NCBI GenBank assembly: GCA_041650895.1
Contig: JBAZKF010000001.1
Location: 509,006 to 573,005 of the forward strand
Direction: 5' to 3'
Origin: Patescibacteria group bacterium
Lineage (GTDB): Bacteria; Patescibacteriota; Patescibacteriia; 2-01-FULL-39-33
DNA: 64,000 bases
A program made the position numbers and the translations under genes. Below are positions 10,901-30,332 of the stretch, piece by piece. Position 1 is the first letter of the stretch. Each line of letters begins with the position of its first letter. The notes under the pieces were generated by a model. It ran no database searches. It was given only the letters and a program-made list of their open reading frames with translations, and was not told the origin of the DNA.

Positions 10901-13900
10901 TCATTCTTCGTTTCCTAGGTCAATCTGAGGAGCGGCGGCAACCGTTACTGTTGTTGATCCATTGCCTATTTGACCCGATCCCGTAGCAGTCAATTCACCG
11001 ATCACCGACATTATCTCCGGATTAGACGGTTCTCCGGCCATGGGATTTGCTGGTTGGATTGTTCCCATACCTTTAGAACCAGCCGTTCCATTTGCTCCCA
11101 AAACGACCGGTGGACCGATAACCCCAGTAACCGACAACGGGGTAGAACTAACAAAAAACGGATCGCTACCGGAAGAGTCAGCTGTTGTTGAGGAGTTATT
11201 TTGTAAAAAAATCGGCGAACTACTGCTTAAAACAATATTCATTTCATCATTAACAACTATATCACCCAAGTCGTCGGTATTATTATCTGAAGTCTCATCA
11301 TCGCTTTTAACCGCCAGAGCATGCCAATTAAATCTCATCTCCTCTGTAAACGGCAGATCGACTGCAACAATAAAGCCGGTGGAGCTTTGCGCTTCTATCC
11401 AATAATCATGCCCGGAAACATTAAGTAAGGGGGTCAGCGTGATTATCGGATCAACATCATAGGGCTTAGCAAAATGAACAGCGGTAGAGGTTGCACCGGC
11501 AGACAACTTAACTGTGCCAGCCGCATCCTTATCCAAATAAATATGATCCTTAAACACCACCTTTGATTCAAATCCTGCTTCGCCGATAACTGTGATGGTA
11601 CCGTAAAAAGTGGCTGAAGAATTTACCGCTAATGAATCCAATACTTCTAAATCATCAAGCGGAGAGTCGTCAACAACTAAGGCCGACTCAGTGCTGGAAG
11701 CGATAATTCCGGATAATTGAGCGGACAGAACCCCAAGTTCTTGCTCCTGACGCTGAGCAACCTGCAATAAATAAAATGGCAGATGGTCGGCGCGATAGCC
11801 CTTGGTTCGGCCGTCATCAAGATATAATTCCGGCAAAGCATCTCTGATTTCTTCGGCGATCAAACCAAAGTCAGTCTGCCCGGTCTGTTTCCAGATAAAC
11901 GATTTGACTTGCAATCCCAATAAAGCGTCGATATTCAAGCTAGTATCAATGATATCATCTTTATACTCTCGAGATGACGGATTAACATTAGTCAAAGTTC
12001 CGTTATTGGAATAAACAGCGCCATTGGTATCTAAGGTGGAAATATTTACGGTTTTAGCTTCAGCATCAAAGGTAACAAAAGGCAGACCGTCATTATAATC
12101 AAGCCATTGATAACTTTTAGCGCTATCAAAAGACAATAACTCAGTTGAGGTAGTAAAATAAATATCCGCAGCCGACGAAAAATCTGAGGCAAAAAAGCTA
12201 ACATGAGCATCACGATTAGTTGAGAAAACTGCGAGATGATCTTTTATACCCACTAAATCCATATCGGATCCAAAAACAGCAGAAGTAGAAGCATGACCGG
12301 AAATCATTGGAACATCCATGAGGCCTTTATTTATATAGAACTTGAGCCCATAATTGCCATCATTTGTGAGTTGGAGCCAATCATTAGGCGATGTAACGGT
12401 TAATTTATGAGTTGGGGTAGTGGTGACAACACCAATGGTCGTAGTAGAATTTAGATTCGTCTCACCGGCAACCTTAAGCCCGCCACTGCCGATTATCACT
12501 CCGAAAAACTTGCCCAAACCGACGGTTATCAAATCCCTTAACACCTGTAAACCGCCAGACACTAACGAGCCAACCCTGGCGGTCGGCGTATCCAATCCCG
12601 GAAGCTTTATAATCACTAACCTATTGGGGCTTACAGACAATGGCAAATAAGCCCTGTTCCCGGAGACTTCCACTCCCCAAGGATTGCCCAAGGTGCTGAT
12701 TGAATCAACAAAATACGGATTATACGGGTCAGAAATGTTAATAATTTTCAAAGCTGCACCCTTATTATCAACAACATAAGCATAATCACCTTGAACCGAT
12801 AAGCCGGTAGATCCTGAAAAATCATTTATATCCTTGTAAAATTCCAACTGAGACCCTCCAACAATTACCGGATTAGTGGAAGAAGAAATGTCAATAATCC
12901 TAAATACCTCGGTAGAAGTGACCCCAATGTCTATAGGCGGTCCAAAGCAGTCATGAGTGGTATAAGCATAACTACCCTTAACAACCACATCCCGGCCTAA
13001 CGGCGGCATATCCAATAAATCACCGCCAACAACAATCGGATTAACCGGATCAGAAATATCAACGATCCTGAATACATTAGTTGAAGTAGCAACATAACTG
13101 ACGGTGTAGGCGTATTTTCCCTGAACATCAATGCCCCGAGTCTCACCGGGGAAATTAGTAACGGGATTACTGATTCTCCTTGGCTTGGAAGGATTAGACA
13201 CATTGATGATTTGCAAACCATCTTCACCGGTTAAGAGACTGGAGTAATAAGCGGTATAAAGCAAACCGTCTATGACTTTTAATTTTCTTAAAGCATAATT
13301 AGCGATATAATCTTCTCCAACCTTTTCCACTGGATTAGTCGGATCGGAAATATCCAAAATAGATAAAGTATTAGTGCTTTGATAAGAGTACTCCTCAAAT
13401 CCGATATAAGCGTATTTCCCATCAATATCAATGCATCTGGCTCCCAAACCGGCACCCGGCCTCAAAGCAAAACTATCATTTACTATAATCGGATTATCAG
13501 GATTGGAAATATCAAAAATTCTTAACTTGTTAGTAGAGGTCGGAGATTGTAATACTACATAGAGATAATCGCCATAAACCATGGAGTTAGATGCCCCGCC
13601 ATGAACTTCTGGCAAAGAAGTAGTAACATAACTTGGAGCTGAATAAAGCAAAGTGGAAGTAGCAATTTTTAGGTTAGAAAGATAAGGCGAAGAAGTCACA
13701 CCGACCAAGCCATTAGTTGCCTGTAAAACTCCGTTTAAACTGCCAATGGTAAGGTCGCCAGAAAGATAAGGCGAAGAAGTCACACCGACCAAGCCATTAG
13801 TAGCTTGCAGGATGCCGTTTAGACTGCCAACGACTAAATTAGTAGTAGTAGTGATTCCCGCTACCTGCAAATCTCCACCAAAGTAATTCTTGCCATTTGT

Positions 13901-16900
13901 AGAGTAAATGGCATAGTTATTGGTTGCTCCCATTGAATCAACGTCGTCAATTCTTAAAGCTGAGTAATCACCTGTAATTGTTCCGCCGTCATTAGTGCTG
14001 ATAATATGCACATTGTCTAATATGCCAGTGAATATTCCGTCATTCTCCAATTCAAAGTTGGCGTTATCAACATAGCCGTTAGTGGATATATTTGAATCAA
14101 CATCAAAAACAGTTCTAAATCTATTAGAATCAGCTACAAGAAACCCAGAATTATTGGCGTAAGTCGTTTCCCAGTTATTACCGTAATAAACTGAAGCATC
14201 ATTAGTTGAAGAAGAGTTAACAGTAACCGAGGAATAAATACTTCCAAGACCAAGACTTAATCCACCGCCAATATCAGCCCAATTATTTTCTTCTACTGTT
14301 CTTACAAAAGCATTTAGACCTCCAAAGATAGAAGCTAATACATTATAAAAAGGAAAGGCACTAATGACTGAACCTGCTCCGACTAACGTCTGGTCGCCTA
14401 CTAATAACTGATTGATAGTGGTAGTGGCCAGAGTGGAAGTTTCCGAAGCTCGGAAACTCTTGGCATAGATACTGGCTGAACTGCTGGCATTGCCATTAAT
14501 TGTTAAGAGAGTGGTGGAAACCGTGCCATAAACATCCAAAGCCGTTTCGGGCAATGATTTACCGATACCCACCTTGCCAGCAAAATAATTTTGAGTGTTG
14601 GAACCTCCCGACCAGATATTGTAATTAAGATTTGATGCTGAAGTGATGCCTTCGGTATAAAAACCATACGCATTCTCTGCTCCATCATTTCCAACATTCC
14701 TTATATTAATACCCTTATAATTTATAGGATGAAAATTTACATCGCTAATAATATCCAAATCAAGTCCGATGGCGTCGGTTACGGTTATTGTCGTATTTGA
14801 GGCATTAATAACATCAAAAAAGTTATTTCTGCCATGAAAGGCAGAAAATTCACTAATCGTCAAAGTCTGGCCACCGTTTGATACCCCCGCCTCTCCATAA
14901 CTGCCCCAGATTTGGTCGACAATTCCAGCTCCGTTGTCATAAACATAATTTCTACTACCAATCAGGCGATTATCGGTTGTTGTTCCGTCATTAATTACTC
15001 CAATTTCAGCTCCGTGAACTCGGTATAAATCACCGTTGAAATCACTGGGTATTCTTGTTGTCATACCCATGGTAGCGACAATTATTGAATCAGTCGGTGT
15101 ATTAAGGTAAGATTCAAATTCAATTTGATGAGAACCGTACTGGTAATAATCCTGGTTGGTAACAACTCTTAAAACCTGATTGCTCCCTTTAAGGGTAGTG
15201 GTTCCATTGACATTCAACCCCCGATCAAAGTTATAATTGGTTGCTCCGGTGATACCAAGTGCCCCAGCATTCGAATTTCCCCAGGGGTCGGTTGAAGTTT
15301 CTTGTATAGTCGCTATGTCATCTAAAATTGAAATCCTATCAGCATACAAATCAGATGTCGTAACTACCCCCACCACCCGTAAATCTCCGCCAAAATAGTT
15401 CTTGCCATTTGTAGAGTAAATGGCATAGTTATTGGTGGCACCCATTAACAGAACATCGTCAATTCTTAATGCCGAGTAATCACCTGTAATTGTTCCGCCG
15501 TCATTAGTATTAATAATATGCACATTGTCTAATCTGCCAGTGAATATTCCGTCATTCTCTAACTCAAAATTGACGTTATCAATATAACCGTTAGTAGATA
15601 TATTGGAGCCTGCATCAAAGAGTGTTTTGAATCTGTTAGAGTCGGCAACCGTAAACCCAGAATTATTGGCGTAAGTCGTTTCCCAGTTATTACCGTAATA
15701 AATTGAACTATCGTTAGTTGAAGAAGAATTGACATTGACTGAAGAGTAAACACTGCCAAGACCGATGCTAGTACCACCCCCATAATCAAGCCAGCTGCTT
15801 TCTTCTATGTTGTTTAATAAACCGGTTATACCGCCAAAAAGCGAAGAAAATAAATTATATAATGCTGAAACACTAAATGCCGAACCTGCTCCGACTAACG
15901 TCTGGTCGCCTGATAACAATCGATTGATGGTAGTAGTAGCCAGAGTAGAAGTGCCGGAAACGGATAATTCCCCGGTCAAGTCCAAACCGGCAAAAGTCGG
16001 GGTATTGGTTGTATCCAGCCATTGGTCAAAAGGGTTCTTGGCTGTAGCCACTAAATAAGAAGCGTCAAAATTGCTTTGGAACCCCGCCCACGTCGTCGTA
16101 GTGTTCCAAAAATACTGTTCGGAAGTGGTAGACCATCTAATTTGCTGAGTCTCCCAATAATCAGCAGATGTAGTGGAAAAAAAGTTGGTTATTGACTTCC
16201 AATAGTCACTGGAACTGGTAGACCAATTGCCGGCTAAAGTGGAAATATCCGACCAATCATTGATATAAACTCCATTCAAACCGGCGACGGTCCCCAAGTA
16301 AGAAGAGTTAGTGGTCGTGGCTGATCCGGTCACCGAAAGATTGCCATTAATGGTAGTAGCGGCTAATTGGGTATTGCCCAAAACACCTAGATTACCGGTA
16401 GTAGTAACGTGATTATCAAAGTAATAGCCGCCGGAGGCGTTTTCAAAAATCAATCTATCAGTGGAAGAATTCAAGTAAATATCAGAAGTAGTGACACTAT
16501 TGGCACTAAAAGTCAGTTTAGGATTCTGGGATATAGAAACATTAATTAGGTTACCACTAGCTAAAGAAATTTTTTCAAAGTCCTTGGCCGCGCCGACACT
16601 GTTATTAGAAACAAAAATCAAATGTTGAGTGGTGGTCTGGTAGCCTATTGTGGCTATACTATCATTATCATAAGAGCCAAATAATATCATGGGACTTTGA
16701 TCGGGCTGAGTATTCCAAATATAGGACGAGTCTTTAAAGCCAAAAACGTCAGTCAGAATAACGTTGGTGCCACTAGCAAAAGCCCCTGACGGGATGGTAT
16801 AACCGTAGATTTTGCCTTGAACAGTATCATTAAAAAAGGAAAAGGTGGTTGTTGCCAGGGTAGTAATACCCTGAGAAGCAAAACTTTCAGTAGAAGTTGC

Positions 16901-17806
16901 CCGAGTTGCGGTCAAATCTGTGATACTGGCAATGGTGGCGACCAAATTAGTGAATAAACCGGAGATAGCATTAAAGACGGAAGTGTAAAAATCAGTCGTG
17001 GTGGCTTGAGTTATAGAAGCGTAAGTAGAAAACAAATTAGTGGAAGTAGCATTTATCGCCAAGGTGGAGGAGGCGCTTAAATTCTTGATATTGGCAGTTG
17101 AAGTAACCGATAAATCGGTAACAGCCAAAGTACCGCCTGTCGCATCACCAAAAACCAAAGTAGAAATATTGGCTATAGTAGCCGTTAAACTACTGATAAT
17201 GGAAGATATGGCGCTAAGAGCCGCGGCGAAAAAATTAGTGCTGGTGGCATTAGTAATTGAGGCGTTGCTGGCAAAAAAATTGGTGGAAGTCAAATTAGTT
17301 ATGGTGGCGCGATCATTAGCCATGTCCGCCCTTAAAAAAGAGGTGGTAGCCAAGCCGTCAAATTCCAAGGTGTTAAGGGCGTTCGGCACAGCGCCCAGAC
17401 GTTTTCTGGGGGTAAGGGTTTCCCCGTCAACGGCTACTTCTAAATATATGTCTTGATTAAAATCCACCGAAGACAAAGAAGTAACCGACCCTAACATAAC
17501 TGAAAACAAACCATTGGCAACCGCCACTTGATCAGCGCCGGTTCGCGTTTCCGTCCAAAGCACCGAAGAACAAGATGAATCGGCACATAATCTAAACACC
17601 ATATCGTAATCACCATCAGCCACTGGACTATCGCTATGGTCAGTTAGCTTGCCTTGATAATTTATTTGCTGATTAAATGAAGCATTGGCTTGGGAGACAA
17701 CAAAAAACAGGGAAAACACAGCAAAACAAGCCATGATAACCCTAATCATCAGGTACTTAAAAGAATTTTGGTGTGTTTTTGTCACCATGCCAAAATGTTT
17801 ACGCAT
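10901..17806 (-). CDS. giant secreted/surface protein (2301 aa) with LVIVD-type beta-propeller repeats and a tail-fibre-like intramolecular chaperone (Peptidase_S74-like) motif
   Basis: N-terminal signal/TM segment (MACFAVFSLFFVVSQANA). Thr/Ser/Asn-rich beta-type sequence with internal duplications. Repeated G[KD]YAY...ID(I)SxPxNP units, and an SSREYKDDI...GLIAEEIRDALPELY motif. Confidence 0.75.
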   Translation of the reverse strand: MRKHFGMVTKTHQNSFKYLMIRVIMACFAVFSLFFVVSQANASFNQQINYQGKLTDHSDSPVADGDYDMVFRLCADSSCSSVLWTETRTGADQVAVANGLFSVMLGSVTSLSSVDFNQDIYLEVAVDGETLTPRKRLGAVPNALNTLEFDGLATTSFLRADMANDRATITNLTSTNFFASNASITNATSTNFFAAALSAISSIISSLTATIANISTLVFGDATGGTLAVTDLSVTSTANIKNLSASSTLAINATSTNLFSTYASITQATTTDFYTSVFNAISGLFTNLVATIASITDLTATRATSTESFASQGITTLATTTFSFFNDTVQGKIYGYTIPSGAFASGTNVILTDVFGFKDSSYIWNTQPDQSPMILFGSYDNDSIATIGYQTTTQHLIFVSNNSVGAAKDFEKISLASGNLINVSISQNPKLTFSANSVTTSDIYLNSSTDRLIFENASGGYYFDNHVTTTGNLGVLGNTQLAATTINGNLSVTGSATTTNSSYLGTVAGLNGVYINDWSDISTLAGNWSTSSSDYWKSITNFFSTTSADYWETQQIRWSTTSEQYFWNTTTTWAGFQSNFDASYLVATAKNPFDQWLDTTNTPTFAGLDLTGELSVSGTSTLATTTINRLLSGDQTLVGAGSAFSVSALYNLFSSLFGGITGLLNNIEESSWLDYGGGTSIGLGSVYSSVNVNSSSTNDSSIYYGNNWETTYANNSGFTVADSNRFKTLFDAGSNISTNGYIDNVNFELENDGIFTGRLDNVHIINTNDGGTITGDYSALRIDDVLLMGATNNYAIYSTNGKNYFGGDLRVVGVVTTSDLYADRISILDDIATIQETSTDPWGNSNAGALGITGATNYNFDRGLNVNGTTTLKGSNQVLRVVTNQDYYQYGSHQIEFESYLNTPTDSIIVATMGMTTRIPSDFNGDLYRVHGAEIGVINDGTTTDNRLIGSRNYVYDNGAGIVDQIWGSYGEAGVSNGGQTLTISEFSAFHGRNNFFDVINASNTTITVTDAIGLDLDIISDVNFHPINYKGINIRNVGNDGAENAYGFYTEGITSASNLNYNIWSGGSNTQNYFAGKVGIGKSLPETALDVYGTVSTTLLTINGNASSSASIYAKSFRASETSTLATTTINQLLVGDQTLVGAGSVISAFPFYNVLASIFGGLNAFVRTVEENNWADIGGGLSLGLGSIYSSVTVNSSSTNDASVYYGNNWETTYANNSGFLVADSNRFRTVFDVDSNISTNGYVDNANFELENDGIFTGILDNVHIISTNDGGTITGDYSALRIDDVDSMGATNNYAIYSTNGKNYFGGDLQVAGITTTTNLVVGSLNGILQATNGLVGVTSSPYLSGDLTIGSLNGVLQATNGLVGVTSSPYLSNLKIATSTLLYSAPSYVTTSLPEVHGGASNSMVYGDYLYVVLQSPTSTNKLRIFDISNPDNPIIVNDSFALRPGAGLGARCIDIDGKYAYIGFEEYSYQSTNTLSILDISDPTNPVEKVGEDYIANYALRKLKVIDGLLYTAYYSSLLTGEDGLQIINVSNPSKPRRISNPVTNFPGETRGIDVQGKYAYTVSYVATSTNVFRIVDISDPVNPIVVGGDLLDMPPLGRDVVVKGSYAYTTHDCFGPPIDIGVTSTEVFRIIDISSSTNPVIVGGSQLEFYKDINDFSGSTGLSVQGDYAYVVDNKGAALKIINISDPYNPYFVDSISTLGNPWGVEVSGNRAYLPLSVSPNRLVIIKLPGLDTPTARVGSLVSGGLQVLRDLITVGLGKFFGVIIGSGGLKVAGETNLNSTTTIGVVTTTPTHKLTVTSPNDWLQLTNDGNYGLKFYINKGLMDVPMISGHASTSAVFGSDMDLVGIKDHLAVFSTNRDAHVSFFASDFSSAADIYFTTSTELLSFDSAKSYQWLDYNDGLPFVTFDAEAKTVNISTLDTNGAVYSNNGTLTNVNPSSREYKDDIIDTSLNIDALLGLQVKSFIWKQTGQTDFGLIAEEIRDALPELYLDDGRTKGYRADHLPFYLLQVAQRQEQELGVLSAQLSGIIASSTESALVVDDSPLDDLEVLDSLAVNSSATFYGTITVIGEAGFESKVVFKDHIYLDKDAAGTVKLSAGATSTAVHFAKPYDVDPIITLTPLLNVSGHDYWIEAQSSTGFIVAVDLPFTEEMRFNWHALAVKSDDETSDNNTDDLGDIVVNDEMNIVLSSSSPIFLQNNSSTTADSSGSDPFFVSSTPLSVTGVIGPPVVLGANGTAGSKGMGTIQPANPMAGEPSNPEIMSVIGELTATGSGQIGNGSTTVTVAAAPQIDLGNEE
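11800..11980 (-). other. Peptidase_S74 / intramolecular chaperone auto-processing-like motif inside the giant protein
   Basis: SSREYKDDIIDT...FGLIAEEIRDALPELY matches the SD(R/K)xLKxNI ... GxIAQEV..xxPExV signature of endosialidase/tail-spike C-terminal chaperone domains. Confidence 0.5.
12560..13650 (-). repeat. LVIVD-like beta-propeller repeat region (protein level)
   Basis: At least six blades: GKYAYIG/ILDISDPTNP, GKYAYTVS/IVDISDPVNP, GSYAYTTHD/IIDISSSTNP, GDYAYVVDN/INISDPYNP, GNRAYLPL. Confidence 0.5.
13676..13838 (-). repeat. in-frame tandem duplication, 2 x ~84 bp (28 aa: IGSLNGvLQATNGLVGVTSSPYLS..)
   Basis: agaaagataaggcgaagaagtcacaccgaccaagccattagt... occurs twice back to back with a few substitutions. 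Confidence 0.7.
13861..14470 (-). repeat. intragenic ~610-bp direct repeat, copy 2
   Basis: About 85-90% nt identity to 15364-15990 by eye. Encodes TSTLATTTINQLLVGDQTLVGAGS...YAIYSTNGKNYFGGDL. Confidence 0.65.
15364..15990 (-). repeat. intragenic ~610-bp direct repeat, copy 1
   Basis: Encodes SVSGTSTLATTTINRLLSGDQTLVGAGS...YAIYSTNGKNYFGGDL. Paralogous to 13861-14470, about 0.9 kb away in the same ORF. Confidence 0.65.
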
Positions 17807-17968: not shown

Positions 17969-20701
17969 TTAGCCGAATAATCCTTCTTTATCTTCTGGTT
18001 CTTTTGACTGCGTCGGCTGATTATCAGCGATCGGCGGAACATTGGTAAATTGACTCTCATTAACCGGCCTTGTTTCTTCTGAGACTTCTTTAATAAGCGT
18101 ATTTTCTGAGGGCACGGCCGATTGATCGGTTTCTTGAGTCTCAACTGCTTCCATTATTTGTTCCTTTCCCTGTTTTAAACCGATATTCTGTTTAACCACG
18201 GCTTCGGCCGCGGTCTGGCCGGTTAAATCGATTATTGGGGTCTTAGCTTGGGCATAGCCGTCCTTGCTGGCAGTCAAATAATACTTATTATTTTCCGCCA
18301 AAAACCCATATTCACCGCGATTATTAGTCACATAGAACTCCAACATACGGCCGTATTCGGGAGAGAAAATCCTAATCACCGCTTTGGCCAAAGATTTCTT
18401 ATTGGTCAAGTCATAAACCCTGCCCCAACTGCGTTTTCCTTTGGGTTTATCGGCTAGACGCTTAAAAATCAAAAGTAGCGATAGATGTAAAGCTAAAATC
18501 AAAGCGGAAAAAATAGAAGGATAAATAAAAGCATAGATAAAGGCCAAAATGGGACCGATTAAACTAAGACTGGCCGCCCAATACCCCTTGCGAAACTTCG
18601 CTATAGCCTGTTTATCTGTTATCGCCAAATTCTTATCCGAATCCAACGGAATATTCGGAGCTATCGTACCCATTGAACCGGCGGGAATATTGATGGTTTC
18701 ACCAAAATACAAGTCCAGATACTGGCCATCTGACTTTTTGCCGGCTAAAATCTCCGAGGGATAAATAAAACCAGACTTTTCAACCCTAATGACGTACTGG
18801 CCTTCCGGAGCAAAGAAAATAAATCTTCCGAATTTATCAGTTACCCGAGAAGTCACTAAGCGGTCAGTCGCCTTGTTGTATAAGCGGACCAGCGCCAAAT
18901 CAACTGGTTTCTTGGTGATAGAATTGAACACTACACCCCAATCCTTACGACGTCGCCGAAACAAGAAAAGCCAAGGTTGGGTAAATAAGAATTGCAAAAT
19001 AGAGAAACTCCAAAAAGGCACAACTAAACTGACATTAATCAAGGCTAAGCCCACGGTTACCTGAGCGATTATTTTGCCCATCGGCGACTGGGCGATATCT
19101 CTGATCGGCGTTAAAAATTCCGCCATTGCCCTTAGTAAAGCGACGCCTGGCAGTTGTTCTATGATTTCTAACGGCCTAACCAAAGCGACTGACACTAACC
19201 AACCAGATACTTCCGCCAACTGAGCTCCAATGGAATCTTGCGCGGAAAATCTTAAATCATAACGGCCGGCCGGTATGGGAGAAAATTGAGCGGCATAAGT
19301 ATTACTGACGGCATCATAGGTTAAAAAATAAACATAATTATTGACGGCCGAGGATAAATCCATCTTGATCCTATCCGTACCCCCGGGAACTTTATCGGCG
19401 GCGATATAAACAGTGATCATCCCACCGTCAGCAGAAACAGTGACCGTACCATCGGCGGAAAAAACACTAATTGACTCATCTTGGCTAAAAATAAAATCGC
19501 CTAAATTGATCTGTGGCGGAATGATTGGCGGAGTCGTCGTCGGTGTGGTGGTCGGAATAATCGGCGGAGTAGTGGTCACAGTGAAGGGCACGCCATTGAT
19601 GCCGACACCACTGGAATAAAAACCAAAAGAATTAAAAGAAAAAATCGAATAGTAATATCTGGTACCGTTAACCAAGCCGGGATTAGCCAGACTGACTCGC
19701 CCGTCCGGAACTGACTCGCCCAAACCGCTGTATATGGCTATACCGGAAGTTAACGAGGGGTAACCCAAGGTAGAGCGACGGATGTACGCGCCGGTAAAAT
19801 CCGGCTCCGCTGGGTTGCGCCAAAATAAAGTCAAGATACTGTCACCCTCAACTATGCTCAAATCAGTCACATTGGATGGTGTGGTTGTCGGAGTGGTAGT
19901 AGGAGAGCTTATGGGCACACCGCTAATACTGGCGCCGGAAGCAAAATTACCGATAGAATCATAAGCAAAAGCAGTATAATAGTATCTCGTGCCATTAATC
20001 AAGCCGGTGTTTAAAAAGCTGATTTCCGGACTGACGGCCGGCTCGCCCCAGCCGTCATAAACCAATACGCCCGAAGCTAAAGCGGGATAATCAACGGTGG
20101 AACGCCTAATAGTGACGCCGGCAAAGTCAGTACTGGTGGGGTTCTGCCAGAATAGGGTTAATCGGCTATCCCCGGCTACCAAACGCAAGCCGTCAACGTT
20201 GGCAATCAAAGCCGGCGTCGAAGCGCTCTTAGTGGTAAAATCATAATCACCCGTCTGAGCCGATCCGCCGGTTGTATTCTGGCAAGCAAGATAGAAATGA
20301 TATAGGGTTGCTTGACTAAGAGAGGTTATGGATGATGAATGGGCTGTTACGGGTGATACCTCAGCGGCTTGACCAGTCAAATAATCGGTGGTGGTACCCC
20401 AATGCAACTGACAATAAGCGGAACTATTAGTCTGCCAAGTAATCGTGGCTCCGCTAATCGTAGTCGTGGCCACTCTAACATCAGAAATTACAAAACCACC
20501 GCCGCAATCAGTGCAGGGAGGCGGGCAATCACTGGGACAATTATCATTAGTTTCTCCGGTTTCGCAAACGCCGTTATTATTACAGACGGAGGCAACGACC
20601 GACACGTCAACGCTAAAACTGTCACTGGAGGTTACAGCCGAAACCGTCAGCGGTAAAAGAGCAAGAAAAAGGATAAAAGCTATTTTTTTAACCGCTGGCA
20701 T
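17969..20701 (-). CDS. large surface/membrane protein (910 aa): FN3-like domains, T/P-rich linker, TM segments interleaved with CarboxypepD_reg-like domains, acidic C-terminal tail
   Basis: Signal peptide MPAVKKIAFILFLALLPLTVSA. Three FN3-like modules (TLFW(Q/R)NP...GTRYYY). TTTPPIIPTTTPTTTPPIIPP linker. Hydrophobic helices, and KFGRFIFFAPEGQYVIRVEKSGF / NNRGEYGFL...YYLTASKDGY beta-sandwich motifs. Confidence 0.7.
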   Translation of the reverse strand: MPAVKKIAFILFLALLPLTVSAVTSSDSFSVDVSVVASVCNNNGVCETGETNDNCPSDCPPPCTDCGGGFVISDVRVATTTISGATITWQTNSSAYCQLHWGTTTDYLTGQAAEVSPVTAHSSSITSLSQATLYHFYLACQNTTGGSAQTGDYDFTTKSASTPALIANVDGLRLVAGDSRLTLFWQNPTSTDFAGVTIRRSTVDYPALASGVLVYDGWGEPAVSPEISFLNTGLINGTRYYYTAFAYDSIGNFASGASISGVPISSPTTTPTTTPSNVTDLSIVEGDSILTLFWRNPAEPDFTGAYIRRSTLGYPSLTSGIAIYSGLGESVPDGRVSLANPGLVNGTRYYYSIFSFNSFGFYSSGVGINGVPFTVTTTPPIIPTTTPTTTPPIIPPQINLGDFIFSQDESISVFSADGTVTVSADGGMITVYIAADKVPGGTDRIKMDLSSAVNNYVYFLTYDAVSNTYAAQFSPIPAGRYDLRFSAQDSIGAQLAEVSGWLVSVALVRPLEIIEQLPGVALLRAMAEFLTPIRDIAQSPMGKIIAQVTVGLALINVSLVVPFWSFSILQFLFTQPWLFLFRRRRKDWGVVFNSITKKPVDLALVRLYNKATDRLVTSRVTDKFGRFIFFAPEGQYVIRVEKSGFIYPSEILAGKKSDGQYLDLYFGETINIPAGSMGTIAPNIPLDSDKNLAITDKQAIAKFRKGYWAASLSLIGPILAFIYAFIYPSIFSALILALHLSLLLIFKRLADKPKGKRSWGRVYDLTNKKSLAKAVIRIFSPEYGRMLEFYVTNNRGEYGFLAENNKYYLTASKDGYAQAKTPIIDLTGQTAAEAVVKQNIGLKQGKEQIMEAVETQETDQSAVPSENTLIKEVSEETRPVNESQFTNVPPIADNQPTQSKEPEDKEGLFG

Positions 20702-20703
20702 AA

Positions 20704-21459
20704 TTAATTGGTATAGGCGGTAAGAGTAACAGTGGCGCTGTAACTGCCTGCCGATTGATTGACGTCAGCGCCAGCCTCGGCACGCAATTTAATGGTTGTG
20801 GCAGTACCGACAACATCAGCCGCCGCTGATTGAGCAATGGTTTTATCGCTGGTTGTCAATTCATCCCAACAGGCATTGGGATTATCCGCTACTCCGCCGA
20901 TATTGCACGTCGCTCCGTCATCCCGATAGGTGGAAGTAATATCTGATCCTTCGGGAGTAAAACCAAAACCCGAAGCGGCAGATGTTACCGACCAGGTATA
21001 ATCAGGATCAGCGCCGGCCTTAACGTAGTCAGCAAAGCTGTTTATCCCAGAAACCAAGGCGGGGGCTGACCCGGCTTTAATCTGCAAAGTATAACCAAGC
21101 GCGCCGCTGGTCCTAACCGTCGCTATAGTGGAGCCATTGGCTATACCGCCTAAAGTTGAATTAATTGAAGGCGAAAGCGAAACGCTGGAATCAGCAACAG
21201 TTAAAGCGACATAAGTTGTTTCATCCAACTGCTGGAAGCCGGCGTTAGTTTGGTAAGTGGTGCTGGTGGAAAGACCGGTACCGATTTCACCGCCGGTTTG
21301 CTCTAAATCATAAGTGGTGGAGGTACTTAATCCGCCGATAAAATTAAGAGAATCACGTTGCAACTCATAATTGGTTGACGACATAACATAAGCCCAAACC
21401 GGCGAAGCGAAAGTAATTAAAAAAACAGCGATAATTAAAAAAAATATTTTATTTTTCAT
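20704..21459 (-). CDS. secreted Thr/Ser-rich protein, possible degenerate WxL-like surface domain
   Basis: Signal peptide MKNKIFFLIIAVFLITFASPVWA. YTWSV and SATVTLTAY segments sit where WxL motifs would be. Overlaps the downstream gene by 4 nt (ATGA). Confidence 0.45.
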   Translation of the reverse strand: MKNKIFFLIIAVFLITFASPVWAYVMSSTNYELQRDSLNFIGGLSTSTTYDLEQTGGEIGTGLSTSTTYQTNAGFQQLDETTYVALTVADSSVSLSPSINSTLGGIANGSTIATVRTSGALGYTLQIKAGSAPALVSGINSFADYVKAGADPDYTWSVTSAASGFGFTPEGSDITSTYRDDGATCNIGGVADNPNACWDELTTSDKTIAQSAAADVVGTATTIKLRAEAGADVNQSAGSYSATVTLTAYTN

Positions 21460-22397
21460 ATCGTTTTACTCTTACTCCGGCGTCGTTTCAGCCAAAAGAT
21501 AGCGCTGATTACCGCAATAACCGCGACAACAATTAGAATCGTAAAAATCCAAGACGGTAAAACCCAGAAACCAGCATAACTCTCGGTATAACTCTGGCCA
21601 TAACCGGGATTCAATAATAATTTGACGCGATACCAGCCGAATTTCGGCTGAGTGAACTCTAATGTCTGCGTTCGTGTCGTTTCCGGCATGACAAAGTAAG
21701 CGGGAATCTTTATTTTCTCTTTAGTCTGTCCTAAAAAATTCAATAAGGATATTTCTCCGGAGGGGTTTAAATAAATATTTCCGGTATTCTTAAAAGAAAA
21801 ACCGACTTTAACCGGGGCGGAGCTATTAAGGTTTTTCTCTGCTTTAAGGCCGGTTAATTCTCCTGATTCCTCAACCGCACCGCTGACTCGGACAAAATAG
21901 AGCGAGGCTAAGCGCGAAACCGGCTTGACCCGTCCGGCGCTATCTTCCGAATCCGCCACAGTAGGGGCGACTACACTGATTAGGACTGCGCCATAAAGCC
22001 CGCCAGGCGGGGCATCAATAGGCACCTTCACTTCTACTGGCAGTTCCATTCGTTCGCCATGCAGCAAGGAAAAGCTCATTACCTCTGGGTGTAAAAAATC
22101 CTTTAGGGAATATTGCCCTTTCTGCGCGCCCAGGAATTCCAAATCAACACCACTTTGAGCGGTAAAATCCTCCACAGCCACAGAAAAATTCAAGGGTTGG
22201 CCAGAACGATTGATGACCGCCACTAAGGTTTTCTCGTTTTGTCCCGGGTTCAGACGTAATTCTTTTTTTCCACCTTCCAGAACAAAATCATTAAAATTTC
22301 CTACGTTGGTTAGCGGAGTGACTGTATAAGCGGTAGAGCAAAGCGGAGCCAAAACCAGCAAACAAAAAGTTGCCAGCCAAATTGTTCGTTTAGGCAT
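21456..22397 (-). CDS. cell-surface protein with C-terminal TM anchor and basic tail (CscA / DUF916-DUF3324-like)
   Basis: Signal peptide, beta-rich ectodomain, then C-terminal LPSWIFTILIVVAVIAVISAIFWLKRRRSKSKTI (a TM helix plus a cationic tail). Confidence 0.5.
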   Translation of the reverse strand: MPKRTIWLATFCLLVLAPLCSTAYTVTPLTNVGNFNDFVLEGGKKELRLNPGQNEKTLVAVINRSGQPLNFSVAVEDFTAQSGVDLEFLGAQKGQYSLKDFLHPEVMSFSLLHGERMELPVEVKVPIDAPPGGLYGAVLISVVAPTVADSEDSAGRVKPVSRLASLYFVRVSGAVEESGELTGLKAEKNLNSSAPVKVGFSFKNTGNIYLNPSGEISLLNFLGQTKEKIKIPAYFVMPETTRTQTLEFTQPKFGWYRVKLLLNPGYGQSYTESYAGFWVLPSWIFTILIVVAVIAVISAIFWLKRRRSKSKTI

Positions 22398-22452
22398 AGA
22401 TATTATTTAACTTTCAATTATATTATAACACAGAAGCCGTGAGATGAGAAAA

Positions 22453-22905
22453 TTATTCAGCTTCTTGTCGATATGCTGACCAAACCAAGAAAATCAAACC
22501 GCCGACAATAGCGCAGTCAGCTAAATTGAAAATAGAAAAATATCGCACATCGATATAATCAATCACGCGGGCGTAATACAAACGATCAAGAAAATTAGAC
22601 CAAGCGCCGACCCAAACCAAAAGCAAAGACAACAATTGCCCACTGTTTTTACGACAAAAAAGTATTAGTCCGTAATAAGACAGTGCCCCAAAAGCCAACA
22701 GATATAAAATGATTATCAGCCAATAGTTAACCGGTAAGCCGAAAGCTACGCCAGAGTTAAAGGCCAAACGTAAACTTAACCATTGGCCAAGAGGAAAAAT
22801 GACCTCGGACCAAGAGTGAATAAACAGCCATTTAAGGCCGCGATCAAATATAAAAACCGCAATCGGCGCCAAAAGGGTAATTGCGGTTTTGAGATCTTTC
22901 ATCAT
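22453..22905 (-). CDS. lspA: lipoprotein signal peptidase II
   Basis: Conserved AFNSGVAFGL and FNLADCAIVGG motifs in four TM helices. The start is trimmed to the internal Met (M16 of the longest ORF, 22903-22905) so it does not overlap the DksA-like gene. Confidence 0.8.
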   Translation of the reverse strand: MMKDLKTAITLLAPIAVFIFDRGLKWLFIHSWSEVIFPLGQWLSLRLAFNSGVAFGLPVNYWLIIILYLLAFGALSYYGLILFCRKNSGQLLSLLLVWVGAWSNFLDRLYYARVIDYIDVRYFSIFNLADCAIVGGLIFLVWSAYRQEAE

Positions 22906-22910
22906 AAATC

Positions 22911-23288
22911 TTAACTTTGGCCTTTGAGCGATTTCTTGCAGGAAACGCAAGAAGTGGATTCGGGACGGATGGCTAGACGCCCGGCCTCAATTTCTTTGCC
23001 GCAATGCTTGCACTTGCCGTAAGTGCCTTCGACAATCTTCTTTAAGGCCTTCTCTACATCATGAAGATTATCCTCCAATTCATGTTCCAATGAAAGATTA
23101 GTGGCGTAATCAGAAACCTCAGAAGCGTTATCTTCAATTGACTGGCTATTGCCATAATCAGGAAAATCAGCGTTAAAATTGACTTCATCGCCTTCAGCGC
23201 GAGTGCCAATAGCATCCAAATGCTTGATGATCTCCGCTTTTTTGGCCTCGAGTTGTAATTTGAATTGTTGCAGTTGCTGATCATTCAT
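22911..23288 (-). CDS. DksA/TraR-family C4 zinc-finger protein
   Basis: Coiled-coil N-terminus and a C-terminal CKHCGKEIEAGRLAIRPESTSCVSC (CxxC-x17-CxxC) motif. Confidence 0.7.
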   Translation of the reverse strand: MNDQQLQQFKLQLEAKKAEIIKHLDAIGTRAEGDEVNFNADFPDYGNSQSIEDNASEVSDYATNLSLEHELEDNLHDVEKALKKIVEGTYGKCKHCGKEIEAGRLAIRPESTSCVSCKKSLKGQS

Positions 23289-23344
23289 AACATTATAAAT
23301 AATACTTAAAGATAGCATAATTATATTATGCCTGGAGAATTATG

Positions 23345-25472: not shown

Positions 25473-27563
25473 TTACGCTTTTTCTGCAGCTAACGCTTTA
25501 GCCATATCATCAAGAAATTTACGCCAGCTGCTGGGGAAAGCCATATCCGAGGGCAAACGCAAATCAGCCCGGGGACTGGCGGATAATGTTCCCACTTTGG
25601 GTCCGTTAGGACTGGCATCGCGTTTGAACTGATTTTTCAACAACTGATGTAAAAAAGTTTCCAACCACTTAAGTAAATCTTCTGGTTCATAAACACCCTT
25701 AAAAGCTTCACAAACCAACTGAAATAAACGTCTCGGCGAATTGCCGGCGCGAATAAAATGATACATATCAAAATCAAGCGCCGGATATTGACCGATTATT
25801 TCTTCCGTAATTTGAGAGATATGTATTCCATCTGACTTAACCAACTCAGCCGAGGCTTCTTTGTCTAAGATATGATAGATGATTGACGAAACTTCGGGGC
25901 CGAATAACTGCTTATCGGCAATCCATTTCAACAACTTATTAACCAAAGTTTTGGGGATGCCGCAATTGGGGTTGTACATGCTCATCTGATCACCGTTATA
26001 GGTGCAATAACCCAAAATGCTTTCCGACAAATTGCCGGTACCGATAGTAAAGCCCAAATCCATGACAGTCTGCGTTCGTTCGCGCGCCTGAGCATTCTCG
26101 CATTGCAGACAATTCCAGCAGGGCTCATGGCCAATAGCGCGCAAATGAGCGGTAACTTGTTCTTCAATCCCGACTTCCTTAAAGGTCGCGCCTAAGGCGT
26201 TAATCAAGTCAACGGCATCCTGGTAGGTTCCAGTAGGTCCGAAGGTCGTCCCTGGTCCAGGCATGGTTACGGCTGTGATTTTTTTCATATCCCAACCGCC
26301 GTAACGGCAAGCCAAAGCCAAATTAAGAAAAGCTAAGGTTGAATCGCGACCGCCGGAAATGGCAATCGCCGCCTTAAGCTTCTCCGGGTCAGGGAAGACT
26401 CGCCGCAACCGCTCAAACAAACCGATTGACGCGATTATGAGAATGCGTTCGCAACGTTTATCCAGAGTATCGGGATCACCGGGCACAAACGGATAGGAAT
26501 CGATTTTCCTCAGCCAATTCTTATCACCGCAAATACTCAATAAATCAATGGGCACCGTCCGCGCCTTATGCTTCCAACCCCTTAGCGTATTAGAATTACT
26601 CTTATTGCGCAAACGCTCGTTATTTAAACGATGAATATCCACATCTGCTACCAATAATTCAGCTTCTTCTGCCTTATATTGTCCGCCAAACAGCGGATTG
26701 CTGTTGCCGGAATTAAACGGTTGGCGTTCCGCCAGAATACTGCCGTTCTCGGCAATCAGGCAGTGCCCGCCAAAAACCGTTTCAGCGGTGGACTCGCCTT
26801 GGCCGGCCGAGCAATAAATATAAGCGCAGACCGAATTGCCGGAAATCGCCTTAGCCAAAATATCACACCGATAATCCTCCTTGCCCACCAATTCATTAGA
26901 GGCCGACAAATTAAAAATAATATTAGCTCCGTTATCGGCATGAAACAGCGAGGGTCGCAAATTAGCCCAGCTATCCTCACAAATTTCCCCGGCTAACACG
27001 CCCAAACAACCCCCCCCGGACGTAAGCAAAGGAAAAATCAAATCGTTGCCTATAGGCACAAGGGCAGTTTTATCACCCCAAGCTGTAGGCATGGAGATTT
27101 CCGTGTCATCACCCAACAAGGAAGCTGAATTAAACCAACGATTTTCGTAAAATTCACCGTAATTCGGTAAGAACGTTTTGGCAATCACCCCTATAACTCG
27201 CCCATAATGGCAAACCGCCGCCACATTAAACAGCTTATCTTGAAAATACACAGGCAAACCGATAAGACTGATCAAATTAAATTCGGATGTTGCTGTCAGA
27301 TAAATCTGTAATGCCTTCAGGGCATCGCTAAGCAGTCCGGCATTAAGGAAACCGTCACCCAAAGAATATCCTGTCAAATTCAATTCCGGAAAACACAGCA
27401 CATCAACGTGTCGCGCGATCGCCTGATGAGCGTAAGAAACGGCGATTTGGGAATTCTTTATCGCATCGCCGATAAACACCCTGGGTACAGCCGTAGCGAC
27501 GCGCAAAAACCCCATTTGCCGATGATCCAATTTCAAACTAAGAGGCAAGTTTCTTACTGGCAT
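25473..27563 (-). CDS. nadE: glutamine-dependent NAD+ synthetase (CN-hydrolase + synthetase domains)
   Basis: N-terminal nitrilase-like domain (CFPELNLTGY, catalytic C in EICED) and a C-terminal SGGRDS P-loop. The 696 aa length matches the long NadE type. Confidence 0.9.
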   Translation of the reverse strand: MPVRNLPLSLKLDHRQMGFLRVATAVPRVFIGDAIKNSQIAVSYAHQAIARHVDVLCFPELNLTGYSLGDGFLNAGLLSDALKALQIYLTATSEFNLISLIGLPVYFQDKLFNVAAVCHYGRVIGVIAKTFLPNYGEFYENRWFNSASLLGDDTEISMPTAWGDKTALVPIGNDLIFPLLTSGGGCLGVLAGEICEDSWANLRPSLFHADNGANIIFNLSASNELVGKEDYRCDILAKAISGNSVCAYIYCSAGQGESTAETVFGGHCLIAENGSILAERQPFNSGNSNPLFGGQYKAEEAELLVADVDIHRLNNERLRNKSNSNTLRGWKHKARTVPIDLLSICGDKNWLRKIDSYPFVPGDPDTLDKRCERILIIASIGLFERLRRVFPDPEKLKAAIAISGGRDSTLAFLNLALACRYGGWDMKKITAVTMPGPGTTFGPTGTYQDAVDLINALGATFKEVGIEEQVTAHLRAIGHEPCWNCLQCENAQARERTQTVMDLGFTIGTGNLSESILGYCTYNGDQMSMYNPNCGIPKTLVNKLLKWIADKQLFGPEVSSIIYHILDKEASAELVKSDGIHISQITEEIIGQYPALDFDMYHFIRAGNSPRRLFQLVCEAFKGVYEPEDLLKWLETFLHQLLKNQFKRDASPNGPKVGTLSASPRADLRLPSDMAFPSSWRKFLDDMAKALAAEKA

Positions 27564-27582
27564 TCTTTTATTCTCCTTCCAC

Positions 27583-28515
27583 TCAAAATTCTTCTTTCAA
27601 GATTATTTCTACTATCGGATTGCATAACGATTTGATAAAAACGAAATCCGACCCGATCAGCAGTTTAATGGCCGCGGGACAGGAGTCTGTGGTGTAAAGA
27701 CGGTTAATCAATCCTTGTTCGTGAGCTTCAACCAGCCTGCTAACGGCTTGGGCATTAACAGCGGCGTGAGGCACGACCAGATTGATCGTTGCCGCTCCCT
27801 GGGATTCCAAAATCTTGGCACATTCAATCAAAGTGCCTCCAGTCCGAGTCAAATCATCAACAATCAATATATTCCGCCCTTGCACTTCGCCCTCTTTTAT
27901 GGTGACGATGCGCTTATCGTCTTGCCTAATCTTCTGGCAAGTGATTTGCCGAAAATTACCCAATGTCTTGCCGAAACGCTTTTGCGCCCCCTCGTCGGGA
28001 AATGCCACTGACCAATCATAAAAGTTTTTTGATAGATAGGGAATGGCTGATTGCAAGAAAATCAAAACATTATCGGAAAAATAAAATTCCTCGCGCAAAT
28101 CATGAATGTCAAAAATAAAAATCCGGGGTGTTCCGGCATTGCCCGGTATAGCGTCAAACATTCGAGCCAAACTCTTGGCCGTAACAATGTCGCCGGGGCT
28201 CATTTTCCGTTCCATGGTGCCGGTGGGGTAAAAAGGTAAAACCACGTTGAGTGACCTGGCGCCATAGCGCGGCAAAGCCCATAAAACGGAAAACTGGCGG
28301 AAAATTTCCAGCGGATTTTCCAAGGAAGCAAAAAACCAAACGTGTTTGTTTTTCACCGCTTCAGCGTCTATGGACGTATCGGGGAAACCATCGGGAAACT
28401 CACCCCACCTGATGGGAGAATACCCAACCGGATAATGCTCAAGGGCTTTTGCTACAGCACAAGCGAACCCTTCCATGATCGGACAACTCAAAATAACAAT
28501 ATTTTTAGTAGGCAT
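27583..28515 (-). CDS. prs: ribose-phosphate pyrophosphokinase (PRPP synthetase)
   Basis: NILIVDDLTRTGGTL PRPP-binding motif and an FSVLWALPRYGARSLNVVLPFYP N-domain. Confidence 0.7.
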   Translation of the reverse strand: MPTKNIVILSCPIMEGFACAVAKALEHYPVGYSPIRWGEFPDGFPDTSIDAEAVKNKHVWFFASLENPLEIFRQFSVLWALPRYGARSLNVVLPFYPTGTMERKMSPGDIVTAKSLARMFDAIPGNAGTPRIFIFDIHDLREEFYFSDNVLIFLQSAIPYLSKNFYDWSVAFPDEGAQKRFGKTLGNFRQITCQKIRQDDKRIVTIKEGEVQGRNILIVDDLTRTGGTLIECAKILESQGAATINLVVPHAAVNAQAVSRLVEAHEQGLINRLYTTDSCPAAIKLLIGSDFVFIKSLCNPIVEIILKEEF

Positions 28516-28680
28516 GGTTTCTATTCCTTTCTGGTTGCGTTGTTACTGCTCACATTAAGTTGTAATGTTCTCAGACTTTCTAAGAACAATCAATTTTTAA
28601 TTGCTCTAGTGAAAGGCAGAGGCGAAGCAAATCGCCTCTGCGTAAAATTAACTCAATCTAACTAATAGCGCCTATTGCCT

Positions 28681-29463
28681 TTAGAATAAAACCTCGGGGA
28701 AAATGGTATCGTCGTCTTCTGGCAGATAATACAAATTCGAACAAGCGCTGGATCGTCCTGCAACTAACTCCGCGCCCTTGATCTGATTTTCCTCTGGCAC
28801 ATACACTTGCGGGCGAATCAGCCAAATCGGCTTATGTTTGGCAAAAAAATTATTATAAAGCACCCGGCAACCGCGCAACTCATTACCCGCCCTTTTTCGC
28901 AAATGATACCAATACTGAAAAGCTTTGGTCTGCCAAATATGCAACGGCACCTGGCATTCGCCGCCAGTTCTTAAAGCGCCTCGGCCCAACATGCCCAAAG
29001 CCAACTCAATGGTCTTTTTCAAAGTATTCGCCGTAGGAATTTTATATTTTACCGCTTTCTCTAACAAATACTTCATGCGGGCGGCATTTTCAGGCGCGCC
29101 CAAAACAACTTTGCCCGATTTCATCCACTCGCCAAATTCCACGTTGGTGGTCAAGGCCGGCATATGTTTAAGCTCTCGCGGTATCCAGAACAGGATTACA
29201 TCGGCGCGATTGAGCCCCTCGTCTTCCCAATCGATTTGAGCCTGACGATTGACGTCTTTGCGGAAACCGCCGCCTTTCTTTTCCGGATCGTAAACCGTGC
29301 CGGAAAAACCTAATGACTCCAGAATGGCGAAAGCGCCGAATTTCCAAGACAACCCCTTCTCGTCTCGCGGGATTGGTCCGGCCAAAAACACCGACTTAAT
29401 CACCTGCTCAGGAAACGATTCTTGGCCGTGCACGATAGTAAAACCGTATTTTTCAGACATCAA
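28681..29463 (-). CDS. nucleoside 2-deoxyribosyltransferase-like (N-glycosidase fold) protein with extra C-terminal domain
   Basis: SVFLAGPI..., DWEDEGLNRADVILFWI and TTNVEFGEWM resemble the NDT/Rcl signatures (FLAGP...D..ADxVVA...GTAFExG). About 110 further residues are of unknown fold. Confidence 0.45.
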   Translation of the reverse strand: MMSEKYGFTIVHGQESFPEQVIKSVFLAGPIPRDEKGLSWKFGAFAILESLGFSGTVYDPEKKGGGFRKDVNRQAQIDWEDEGLNRADVILFWIPRELKHMPALTTNVEFGEWMKSGKVVLGAPENAARMKYLLEKAVKYKIPTANTLKKTIELALGMLGRGALRTGGECQVPLHIWQTKAFQYWYHLRKRAGNELRGCRVLYNNFFAKHKPIWLIRPQVYVPEENQIKGAELVAGRSSACSNLYYLPEDDDTIFPEVLF

Positions 29464-30299: not shown

Positions 30300-30332
30300 G
30301 CGGAACTGTCAAAATTTTTGACAGTTCCGCCG
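30300..30332. terminator. perfect 16-bp-stem palindrome 3' of pncB (no U-tract)
   Basis: ggcggaactgtcaaaa-t-ttttgacagttccgcc. Confidence 0.4.

Follow-up and report, generated by a model that had tools for sequence, protein, structure and literature searches.

The window analysed here, a 64-kb stretch of a Patescibacteria group metagenome-assembled genome (all coordinates are window positions), contains two overlapping minus-strand genes for proteins of 313 and 251 amino acid residues (aa) that had been described, from the sequence alone, as a possible divergent WxL/CscA-type pair. The question raised by this locus is whether WxL-type surface display, known from Firmicutes, extends to bacteria of the candidate phyla radiation (CPR) or whether the two genes belong to a surface system of another kind. 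The results described below indicate that the 313-aa protein is truly homologous to Firmicute WxLIP/CscA, i.e., DUF916-DUF3324 proteins with a transmembrane (TM) helix, and that it has a chaperone-like fold. Its partner lacks the sequence profile and motifs of WxL proteins and, judged by its sequence, is related to the pilus protein PamT. The pair is probably the core of a CPR-specific, usher-less surface-assembly module in which a membrane-anchored chaperone would act by β-strand complementation.

Both open reading frames (ORFs) and their 4-nt overlap (ATGA, in the junction ATATGA) were present as predicted, and gene calls for the 313-aa and 251-aa proteins were identical in independent public assemblies. 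The stop codon of the 251-aa gene is separated by only 2 nt from the start of a third gene, for a 910-aa protein (junction TAA-TT-ATG). The non-Firmicute background of the pair was also borne out, the 313-aa protein being 100% identical to a protein of a Patescibacteria-group genome and the nearest relatives of the module proteins being those of Ca. Buchananbacteria and Magasanikbacteria (Parcubacteria group).

Homology of the 313-aa protein with WxLIP/CscA

The AlphaFold2 (AF2) model of the 313-aa protein, calculated from a 60-sequence alignment, had a predicted local distance difference test score (pLDDT) of 91.3 and consisted of a signal-peptide helix (residues 3-16), an all-β ectodomain (residues 25-279) and a C-terminal TM helix, behind which lies the basic tail WLKRRRSKSKTI (KRRRSKSKTI). 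Hydropathy segments were noted at residues 5-24 and 273-306. Model, hydropathy and sequence thus concur with the predicted topology (signal peptide, β-ectodomain, C-terminal TM helix and basic tail), and a signal peptide together with a single C-terminal TM helix is the arrangement of WxLIP/CscA proteins.

Relationship to this family was evident from several comparisons. The Pfam model PF06030 (WxLIP_PGBD, formerly DUF916) matched the 313-aa protein with 24.1 bits (E=4e-5), under the gathering score of 27.3, and matched 40 of the 60 members of its family (best E 1.9e-8). In a search of PDB sequences with the 313-aa family profile, EfmWxLIP1 was the sole significant match (E=3.3e-5). Ten annotated DUF916/DUF3324 proteins from plasmids of Enterococcus, Lactococcus, Listeria, Lactiplantibacillus, Lactobacillus and Levilactobacillus served as a Firmicute control set; the HHalign comparison of the CPR family with these proteins gave a probability of 98.3% (E=2.2e-14, 219 columns) and spanned both domains (query 41-267, template 46-273). 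Searches with hidden Markov models (HMMs) were reciprocal, the Firmicute WxLIP HMM recognizing the 313-aa protein (E=2.3e-6) and the CPR HMM recognizing the Firmicute WxLIPs (E=1.6e-6). The best Foldseek matches of the 313-aa model in the PDB were to E. faecium WxLIP (9i1y/9i25, E=1e-13, 269 alignment columns), followed by the chaperone-usher (CU) chaperones CfaA (E=1.5e-10), Caf1M, CsuC, DraB and PapD, which as a group ranged from E=1e-10 to 1e-6; RbmA, a protein with two immunoglobulin-like (Ig) domains, was also among the matches. No Pfam matches to PapD_N or PapD_C (PF00345/PF02753) were found among the 60 family members, and an NCBIfam scan of the family for any PamC or PamD models that may exist likewise gave no matches.

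In view of the PF06030, PDB profile, Foldseek, HHalign and reciprocal HMM results, the CscA/WxLIP half of the original prediction was correct. Of the two Pfam families expected under that prediction, DUF916 was recognizable, albeit below threshold in the 313-aa protein itself, whereas PF11797 (DUF3324) had no match in this protein or in the 60 members of its family. In addition to topology and the two Ig-like domains, the 313-aa protein shares with WxLIP/CscA proteins of Lactobacillales and Bacillales such as EfmWxLIP1 a short basic tail, a disordered loop at the position of the strand-donating hairpin and a gene location between those of a small and a larger secreted protein that have a C-terminal domain in common. 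It differs from them in length (313 aa as opposed to a typical 337-365 aa) and in its CPR host, WxL proteins having been reported almost only from Lactobacillales and Bacillales (PMC10599100).

The 251-aa partner, PamT and WxL proteins

The description of the 251-aa protein as secreted and rich in Thr and Ser was confirmed by a signal peptide and by an S+T content of 25.5%, compared with a window median of 10.7%. Its mature part comprises two regions. The N-terminal segment (residues 24-80) consists of three S-S-x-x-Y-type repeats, namely SSTNYELQRDSLNFIGG, STSTTYDLEQTGGEIGTG and STSTTYQTNAGFQQL, with near-invariant S28, Y31, D36, S37, N39, G42, S47, Y50, T55, G57, E58, G62, S66 and G74. These positions are among the most conserved of the family, yet the segment is predicted to be disordered in the monomer (pLDDT <50 in AF2). 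The C-terminal region is an Ig domain with an invariant Cys185/Cys197 pair, an invariant G122-Y123 and a terminal G-x-Y-x-A-T-x-T-x-T-A strand. Among the structural matches listed for the model, the fold of this domain was closest to that of pilins assembled by donor-strand exchange (CU pilins), and resemblance to the TasA fibre, the TLP-2 chain (PDB 9ikk), CanA/CanX and the Pyrobaculum bundling pilin was also noted; the WxL chain of 9i25 was absent from the matches listed. The profile of the 251-aa family had no matches among PDB sequences, and none of the deposited Pam pilins or WxL chains can thus be recognized as its relative.

The sole database family matched by the 251-aa protein was NCBIfam NF058579 ('CPR-type pilus protein PamT'), with 42.1 bits (E=6.5e-11) over residues 6-134 only. 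Matches below cutoff were likewise obtained for 60 of the 63 members of the family. The score of the 251-aa protein is about 200 bits short of the 240-bit equivalog cutoff, and its family, as far as can be judged from sequence, is related to PamT without being its equivalog. The Pam pilus is a system of Ca. Mycosynbacter amalyticus reported in 2026 (bioRxiv 10.64898/2026.03.03.709456). Its pilins, PamA and PamB, are joined by donor-strand exchange, and its chaperones, PamC and PamD, resemble PapD/FimC and bear a TM helix at the C-terminus. The tip subunit PamT has a single domain, while the anchor PamR combines an N-terminal strand with FnIII domains and a TM helix. According to the same report, a conserved 'tail fibre-like protein' and ATP-synthase genes are located near pam operons, there is no usher, and Pam pilins occur mainly in Saccharimonadia and Microgenomatia; WxL and DUF916 are not mentioned. 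No literature linking WxL or DUF916 with CPR was found.

In contrast with the 313-aa protein, its partner did not fit the family to which it had been assigned. None of the 63 members of the 251-aa family matched PF13731 (WxL) or any other Pfam model, and HHalign probabilities against genuine WxL proteins from the ten Firmicute plasmids were 0.7% and, with broader domain-only profiles, 0.9%, all modes used (full-length, domain-only, relaxed and global) being non-significant. HMMs built from real WxL proteins had no matches in the window or in 80 related CPR loci (see below), whereas the same HMMs recovered 13-15 WxL proteins in the Firmicute control loci, including two that are annotated as hypothetical. 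The W-containing β-motifs that had been predicted at the expected WxL positions did not hold up either. Thus, position 156 (the Trp of DYTWSV) has Trp in only 39 of the 63 members, with Phe in another 23, and the two residues behind it are S/T and V/I rather than x-L; W198 is invariant but part of an invariant Cys-Trp adjoining the C185/C197 pair; and the terminal strand has no Trp in any member of the family. The two conserved Trp-x-Leu motifs on adjacent strands that characterize WxL domains are therefore missing, and WxL identity of the 251-aa protein was rejected on these grounds.

A weaker version of the same idea is that the 251-aa protein binds peptidoglycan non-covalently through a strongly diverged WxL domain and is stabilized on the wall by the WxLIP-like protein, as proposed for Csc/WxL clusters of Lactobacillales. 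The homology of the 313-aa protein with WxLIP is real, the order of small protein, WxLIP-like protein and larger protein in CPR loci is that of Firmicute loci, and the domain shared by small and large variants is always C-terminal, with adhesin-like passengers N-terminal to it. This placement beside a WxLIP gene is as expected of WxL domains but is also expected of the pilin domains of two-domain adhesins. In the relaxed HHalign alignment, which is a lead without statistical support, the families were colinear at both WxL motifs, with CPR G-Y-x-L under the first G-W-x-L and the Y-x-A-T-x-T strand under Y-T-x-T-L-T-W-x-L. Against these similarities stand the blank profile searches with models that detect even unannotated control proteins, the absence of either motif, nearest folds, among the matches listed, that are those of CU pilins, and PamT as the only relative in sequence, and we consider a divergent WxL domain unlikely. 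As regards the proposal that WxL-type display extends to CPR, non-covalent display that depends on a WxLIP homologue is plausible but is not of WxL type in the family sense.

The two hypothetical proteins recovered from control loci are both encoded beside a WxLIP gene, one on a Listeria innocua plasmid (L083, 6891-9356; WxL HMM match E=2e-8) and the other on a Levilactobacillus brevis plasmid (L090, 5282-5839; E=2e-7 to 6e-6).

Conservation of the gene pair in CPR genomes

A scan of GTDB species representatives yielded 80 CPR loci, from Buchanan-, Magasanik-, Jackson-, Falkow-, Nomura-, Taylor- and Campbellbacteria and Paceibacterota. Titles such as 'uncultured Gammaproteobacteria', 'Burkholderiales' and 'Saccharibacteria' (L004, L006, L027, L035, L053 and about 25 Saccharibacteria loci) appeared unreliable and were not used for taxonomy. 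The conserved gene order was small pilin-like paralogue (not always present), WxLIP-like protein, PamT-like protein and, where present, an anchor that combines an N-terminal strand, FN3 domains and a TM helix; in many cases a giant tail-fibre-like protein is encoded next. The PamT-like gene was immediately downstream of the WxLIP-like gene in 69 of the 80 loci, and a shorter paralogue of approximately 220 aa, consisting of the pilin-like domain only, was immediately upstream in 68. The window and its closest relatives (L001, L002 and L014) lack this upstream paralogue and have lspA and a dksA-like gene in its place. The paralogue was not found within 10 kb on either side of the window module, nor was a second copy of either family found elsewhere in the 64 kb.

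An exhaustive HMMER search with the 251-aa family found 2,523 representative clusters at E<=1e-3 and 281 at E<=1e-30. Among the top 150 were 48 long representatives, of which 16 were fusions of WxLIP-like and PamT-like proteins and 32 had other N-terminal regions in front of a C-terminal unit of repeat segment and pilin-like domain. Laminin_G_3, DUF2341 and fn3 domains were found in the passenger regions of the large variants, and in NCBIfam some of these variants matched TafC in its LamG-like adhesin part. TafC is the putative tip adhesin of Tat-fimbriae (Tafi), haloarchaeal filaments that are likewise assembled by strand donation. When small paralogues and large variants were compared with NCBIfam in search of other Pam models, only PamT and TafC were matched.

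The 16 fusions (P0246, P0250-P0254, P0257, P0259, P0266, P0270 and others) are approximately 520-580 aa long and join a complete WxLIP-like protein, TM helix included, to a complete PamT-like protein, signal peptide included. In a real fusion of this kind, the TM helix and the signal peptide would pair as a helical hairpin that leaves both ectodomains on the outside of the cell, although some of the 16 may be gene-calling artefacts. Fusions of two other kinds were noted. In L026 (7915-10572), the S-S-x-x-Y repeat segment is fused to an FN3/TM protein like that of 910 aa (885 aa in all), after the WxLIP-like gene and without a separate pilin-like domain, which suggests that the repeat segment itself may be recognized by the chaperone or the assembly. 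In L033 (5617-8391), 910-like sequence and a complete WxLIP-like region are encoded by one ORF of 924 aa, a putative chaperone-anchor fusion.

Signal peptides of small paralogues (e.g., L033, 4945-5607; L029, 9335-9985; L039, 170-841) end in a recurring F/L-E-P motif approximately 8-10 residues before the predicted cleavage site, e.g., YFEPVIAGA, YLEPLVVEA and FEPELASA, which may be a specialized sorting or processing signal.

Proteins encoded downstream of the pair

The 910-aa protein has a signal peptide, an N-terminal β-strand (SSDSFSVDVSVV), a Cys-rich knot (CNNNGVCE...CPSDC), FN3-like domains, TM segments, two CarboxypepD_reg domains and an acidic tail. Homologues of its N-terminal part are encoded by the next gene in 58 of the 80 CPR loci. 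These proteins share the signal peptide, an alternating-hydrophobic mature N-terminus (consensus S-D-S-I-Q-V-N-L-G-V), the element CNNNGICE...CPxDC and FN3-like domains, and most of them end in a C-terminal TM helix and a basic tail. The succession of N-terminal strand, FN3 domains and TM helix is that published for PamR, a likeness at the level of architecture only, and the 910-aa protein probably anchors the module in the membrane and serves as its last strand donor.

The Cys element, C-N-N-N-G-I/V-C-E-x-G-E-x(3-5)-C-P-x-D-C, is located right behind the N-terminal strand (20500-20640 in the window, residues ~20-66 of the 910-aa protein) and was found in homologues from 35 loci. It is tandemly duplicated in L037, L017, L018, L006 and L013 and matched no Pfam family.

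The giant protein, of 2301 aa, contains LVIVD β-propeller repeats and a Peptidase_S74 tail-fibre intramolecular chaperone domain, behind which are approximately 300 further residues. Relatives are encoded downstream in at least 10 loci, and the protein is likely an accessory or co-located adhesin of the module. An internal duplication of approximately 1.5 kb repeats long stretches of it (13836-14135 and 15348-15647, spaced 1512 nt, with a 300-nt core that is 83% identical).

A putative usher-less chaperone pathway

What distinguishes this module is a recognizable WxLIP homologue in the place of the chaperone, paired with PamT-related subunits of pilin fold. Usher-less assembly by a membrane-anchored chaperone is the reading that we favour because of the chaperone-like fold of one protein and the pilin-like fold of the other, the precedent of Pam pili, the fixed gene order, the fusions and the predicted donation of a strand by WxLIP. 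Concerning the last point, the hairpin loop of WxLIP has been predicted to provide a β-strand that completes the sandwich of the WxL partner (PMC10599100), and a WxLIP:WxL complex is deposited as 9i25. Residues 144-161 of the 313-aa protein match this loop in position and may have a similar function.

Assembly might then proceed as follows. All parts of the module would be exported by Sec. The 313-aa protein, its two Ig-like domains forming a chaperone of PapD/WxLIP type, would stay anchored in the cytoplasmic membrane through its C-terminal helix. Once the 251-aa subunit is secreted, the chaperone would capture it by inserting into its pilin-like domain a strand that presumably comprises the disordered loop and the adjoining R-L-A-S-L-Y-F-V-R-V strand, in the manner predicted for WxLIP with WxL and used on pilins by chaperones of the PapD and PamC/D types. 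The subunit would subsequently be handed to a permanent strand donor, most likely the conserved strand at the N-terminus of the 910-aa protein, the gene of which is translationally coupled. In most other CPR genomes, the small pilin-domain paralogue could form a polymerizing shaft. The expected product would be a membrane-anchored fibre or stalk that bears the PamT-like subunit or, in other genomes, large lectin-bearing variants for contact with host cells, while that of the present lineage may be only a short capped stalk.

Several points weigh against this reading. Strand insertion, the choice of donor and the nature of the product in this lineage (a filament or a short capped stalk) are inferred rather than observed. 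The PamT match is far under the equivalog cutoff (42 as opposed to 240 bits) and is carried by the repeat segment only (27 bits, E=2.5e-6), the pilin-like domain by itself having no match. Neither a two-domain major pilin of the PamA/PamB type nor a small shaft paralogue was found in the 64-kb window, which contains only one pilin-domain protein, and no ATP-synthase genes were noted among the annotated neighbours, although such genes are reported near pam operons. Given the lack of a small paralogue and of a two-domain pilin in the window, this organism may not build a true filament.

Adjacency and folds also bear on the alternative that no strand is exchanged, the 313-aa protein being a structural or adhesive surface protein with wall- and host-binding Ig domains, as WxLIP was at first proposed to be, and the 251-aa protein an independent, co-transcribed adhesin or matrix protein. 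Such an interpretation would agree with the peptidoglycan-binding and host-binding roles that Hassan and Williamson assign to WxLIP domains, with two-Ig-domain proteins such as RbmA among the fold matches and with the lack of PapD_N/PapD_C matches. Yet the same authors predict that a strand of WxLIP inserts into WxL, and a WxLIP:WxL complex has been deposited (9i25). Moreover, the near-universal adjacency of overlapping or abutting genes and the recurrent fusion of chaperone and subunit argue for a physical partnership, and the closest folds of the partner are those of subunits that need a complementing strand. Independent adhesins are thus an improbable explanation of the locus.

We regard it as very unlikely that the pair builds a bona fide Pam pilus, i.e., that the genes are an orthologous pam operon diverged in sequence. 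The module does resemble the Pam system in being CPR-specific, presumably Sec-dependent and without an usher, and its parts list is that of the published system. Thus, the 313-aa protein corresponds at the level of fold and topology to a PapD-like chaperone with a C-terminal TM helix, a PamT-type subunit is indicated by NCBIfam matches, and a candidate anchor with strand, FN3-like domains and TM helix and a giant tail-fibre-like protein are encoded nearby. On the other hand, the module is minimal, with three to four genes that differ in number and order from those of the M. amalyticus operon, similarity to PamT is weak and limited to the N-terminal segment, and no two-domain pilins like PamA or PamB were found in the window. 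Furthermore, the module occurs in the Parcubacteria group, to which this organism belongs (including Buchanan- and Magasanikbacteria), and in Paceibacterota, in contrast with the main distribution of Pam pilins. A chance pair of hypothetical secreted proteins was rejected because adjacency is kept in 69 of 80 genomes and fusions recur.

The module also differs from other known systems. Firmicute clusters contain two or more WxL-domain genes, none of which was found in the window or the 80 CPR loci, and in place of an LPXTG/sortase component, which is missing from the module, there is a TM-anchored FN3 protein. The large CPR variants, with a lectin domain and a C-terminal pilin domain, are built like the two-domain tip adhesins of chaperone-usher systems. 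However, the Pfam scan of neighbours and operon proteins revealed neither an usher domain nor an usher gene, the candidate chaperone is membrane-anchored rather than soluble, and the subunit has a triple-repeat N-terminal segment of 55 residues instead of a short Nte. CPR bacteria are not known to possess an outer membrane. Chaperone-free filaments formed by donor strands (TasA, Tafi, bundling pili and cannulae) resemble the module in the fold of the 251-aa domain and in the LamG-like adhesin domain that large CPR variants share with TafC, but have no dedicated chaperone, whereas a chaperone-like gene is almost always adjacent here. Since the PamT cutoff is not reached and no WxL gene is present, the module is best read as a strict member of neither the Pam nor the WxL/WxLIP system, with a functional logic that resembles both.

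How CPR bacteria attach to their hosts is largely unknown, and the Pam pilus is their only structurally defined filament other than type IV pili. The present module, the proteins of which are currently annotated as hypothetical, is compact and very widespread in Parcubacteria-type lineages and supplies candidate adhesins for host contact, including variants with lectin-like domains. The role of Firmicute WxL/Csc clusters, which have been known since 2006, is debated, and the results point to a possible role of WxLIP as a donor-strand chaperone. As a tentative proposal, which may well prove wrong, Firmicute WxL/Csc clusters and CPR Pam-type pili could be two branches of one ancient usher-less chaperone pathway of single-membrane bacteria; WxLIP/CscA would then be a membrane-anchored PapD-like chaperone rather than a wall- or host-binding adhesin, and the four-gene module of CPR would be the linking form.

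Features and neighbouring genes of the window

Coordinates of the module genes, of their subdivisions and of a promoter candidate, which is placed within the 55 nt that separate lspA from the 313-aa gene, are collected in Table 1.

Table 1. Position, strand and supporting evidence of features in the window.
Feature	Position	Strand	Evidence
WxLIP-like gene, 313 aa, membrane-anchored PapD-like chaperone candidate	21456..22397	-	ORF, AF2, PF06030, HHalign, Foldseek, reciprocal HMM
Domain 1 of 313-aa protein (residues 25-143), corresponding to DUF916/WxLIP_PGBD	21969..22325	-	PF06030 at 47-140; EfmWxLIP1 alignment at 24-145; AF2 strands
Low-confidence loop of 313-aa protein (residues 144-161)	21915..21968	-	pLDDT 74/68, DSSP coil; aligned to EfmWxLIP1 loop
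Domain 2 of 313-aa protein (residues 162-279), corresponding to DUF3324/WxLIP_HBD	21561..21914	-	HHalign and Foldseek alignments run through
C-terminal TM helix of 313-aa protein (residues 282-310)	21468..21554	-	AF2, hydropathy
251-aa secreted PamT-like subunit: signal peptide, triple-repeat segment, C-terminal pilin-like Ig domain	20704..21459	-	ORF, NF058579, AF2
N-terminal repeat segment of 251-aa protein (residues 24-80)	21220..21390	-	Conservation; AF2 pLDDT <50
C-terminal pilin-like Ig domain of 251-aa protein (residues 81-251)	20707..21219	-	
910-aa stalk/anchor candidate, PamR-like architecture, membrane-anchored	17969..20701	-	ORF, Pfam, hydropathy, homologues
2301-aa giant surface protein, likely accessory or co-located adhesin of module	10901..17806	-	Pfam, homologues, internal repeat
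Sigma-70-like promoter candidate, TTCTCA-17-TATAAT with extended TG	22422..22450	-	Consensus scan, 10/12 matches; pattern match only

Directly upstream of the module are the LspA gene (lipoprotein signal peptidase, Peptidase_A8; 22453-22950, minus strand) and a gene of DksA/TraR zinc-finger type (22911-23318, minus strand), the listed ORF of which overlaps that of LspA. LspA and DksA-type genes also precede the module, again without a small pilin-like paralogue, in L001, L002, L014 and L026. Other annotated neighbours in the window are a pyridine nucleotide-disulphide oxidoreductase and a class I (Trp/Tyr-type) aminoacyl-tRNA synthetase. A cluster for NAD/nucleotide salvage at 25473-33360 (minus strand) encodes glutamine-dependent NAD synthetase, PRPP-synthase-like and nucleoside 2-deoxyribosyltransferase-like proteins, a histidine phosphatase, nicotinate phosphoribosyltransferase and a NUDIX protein.

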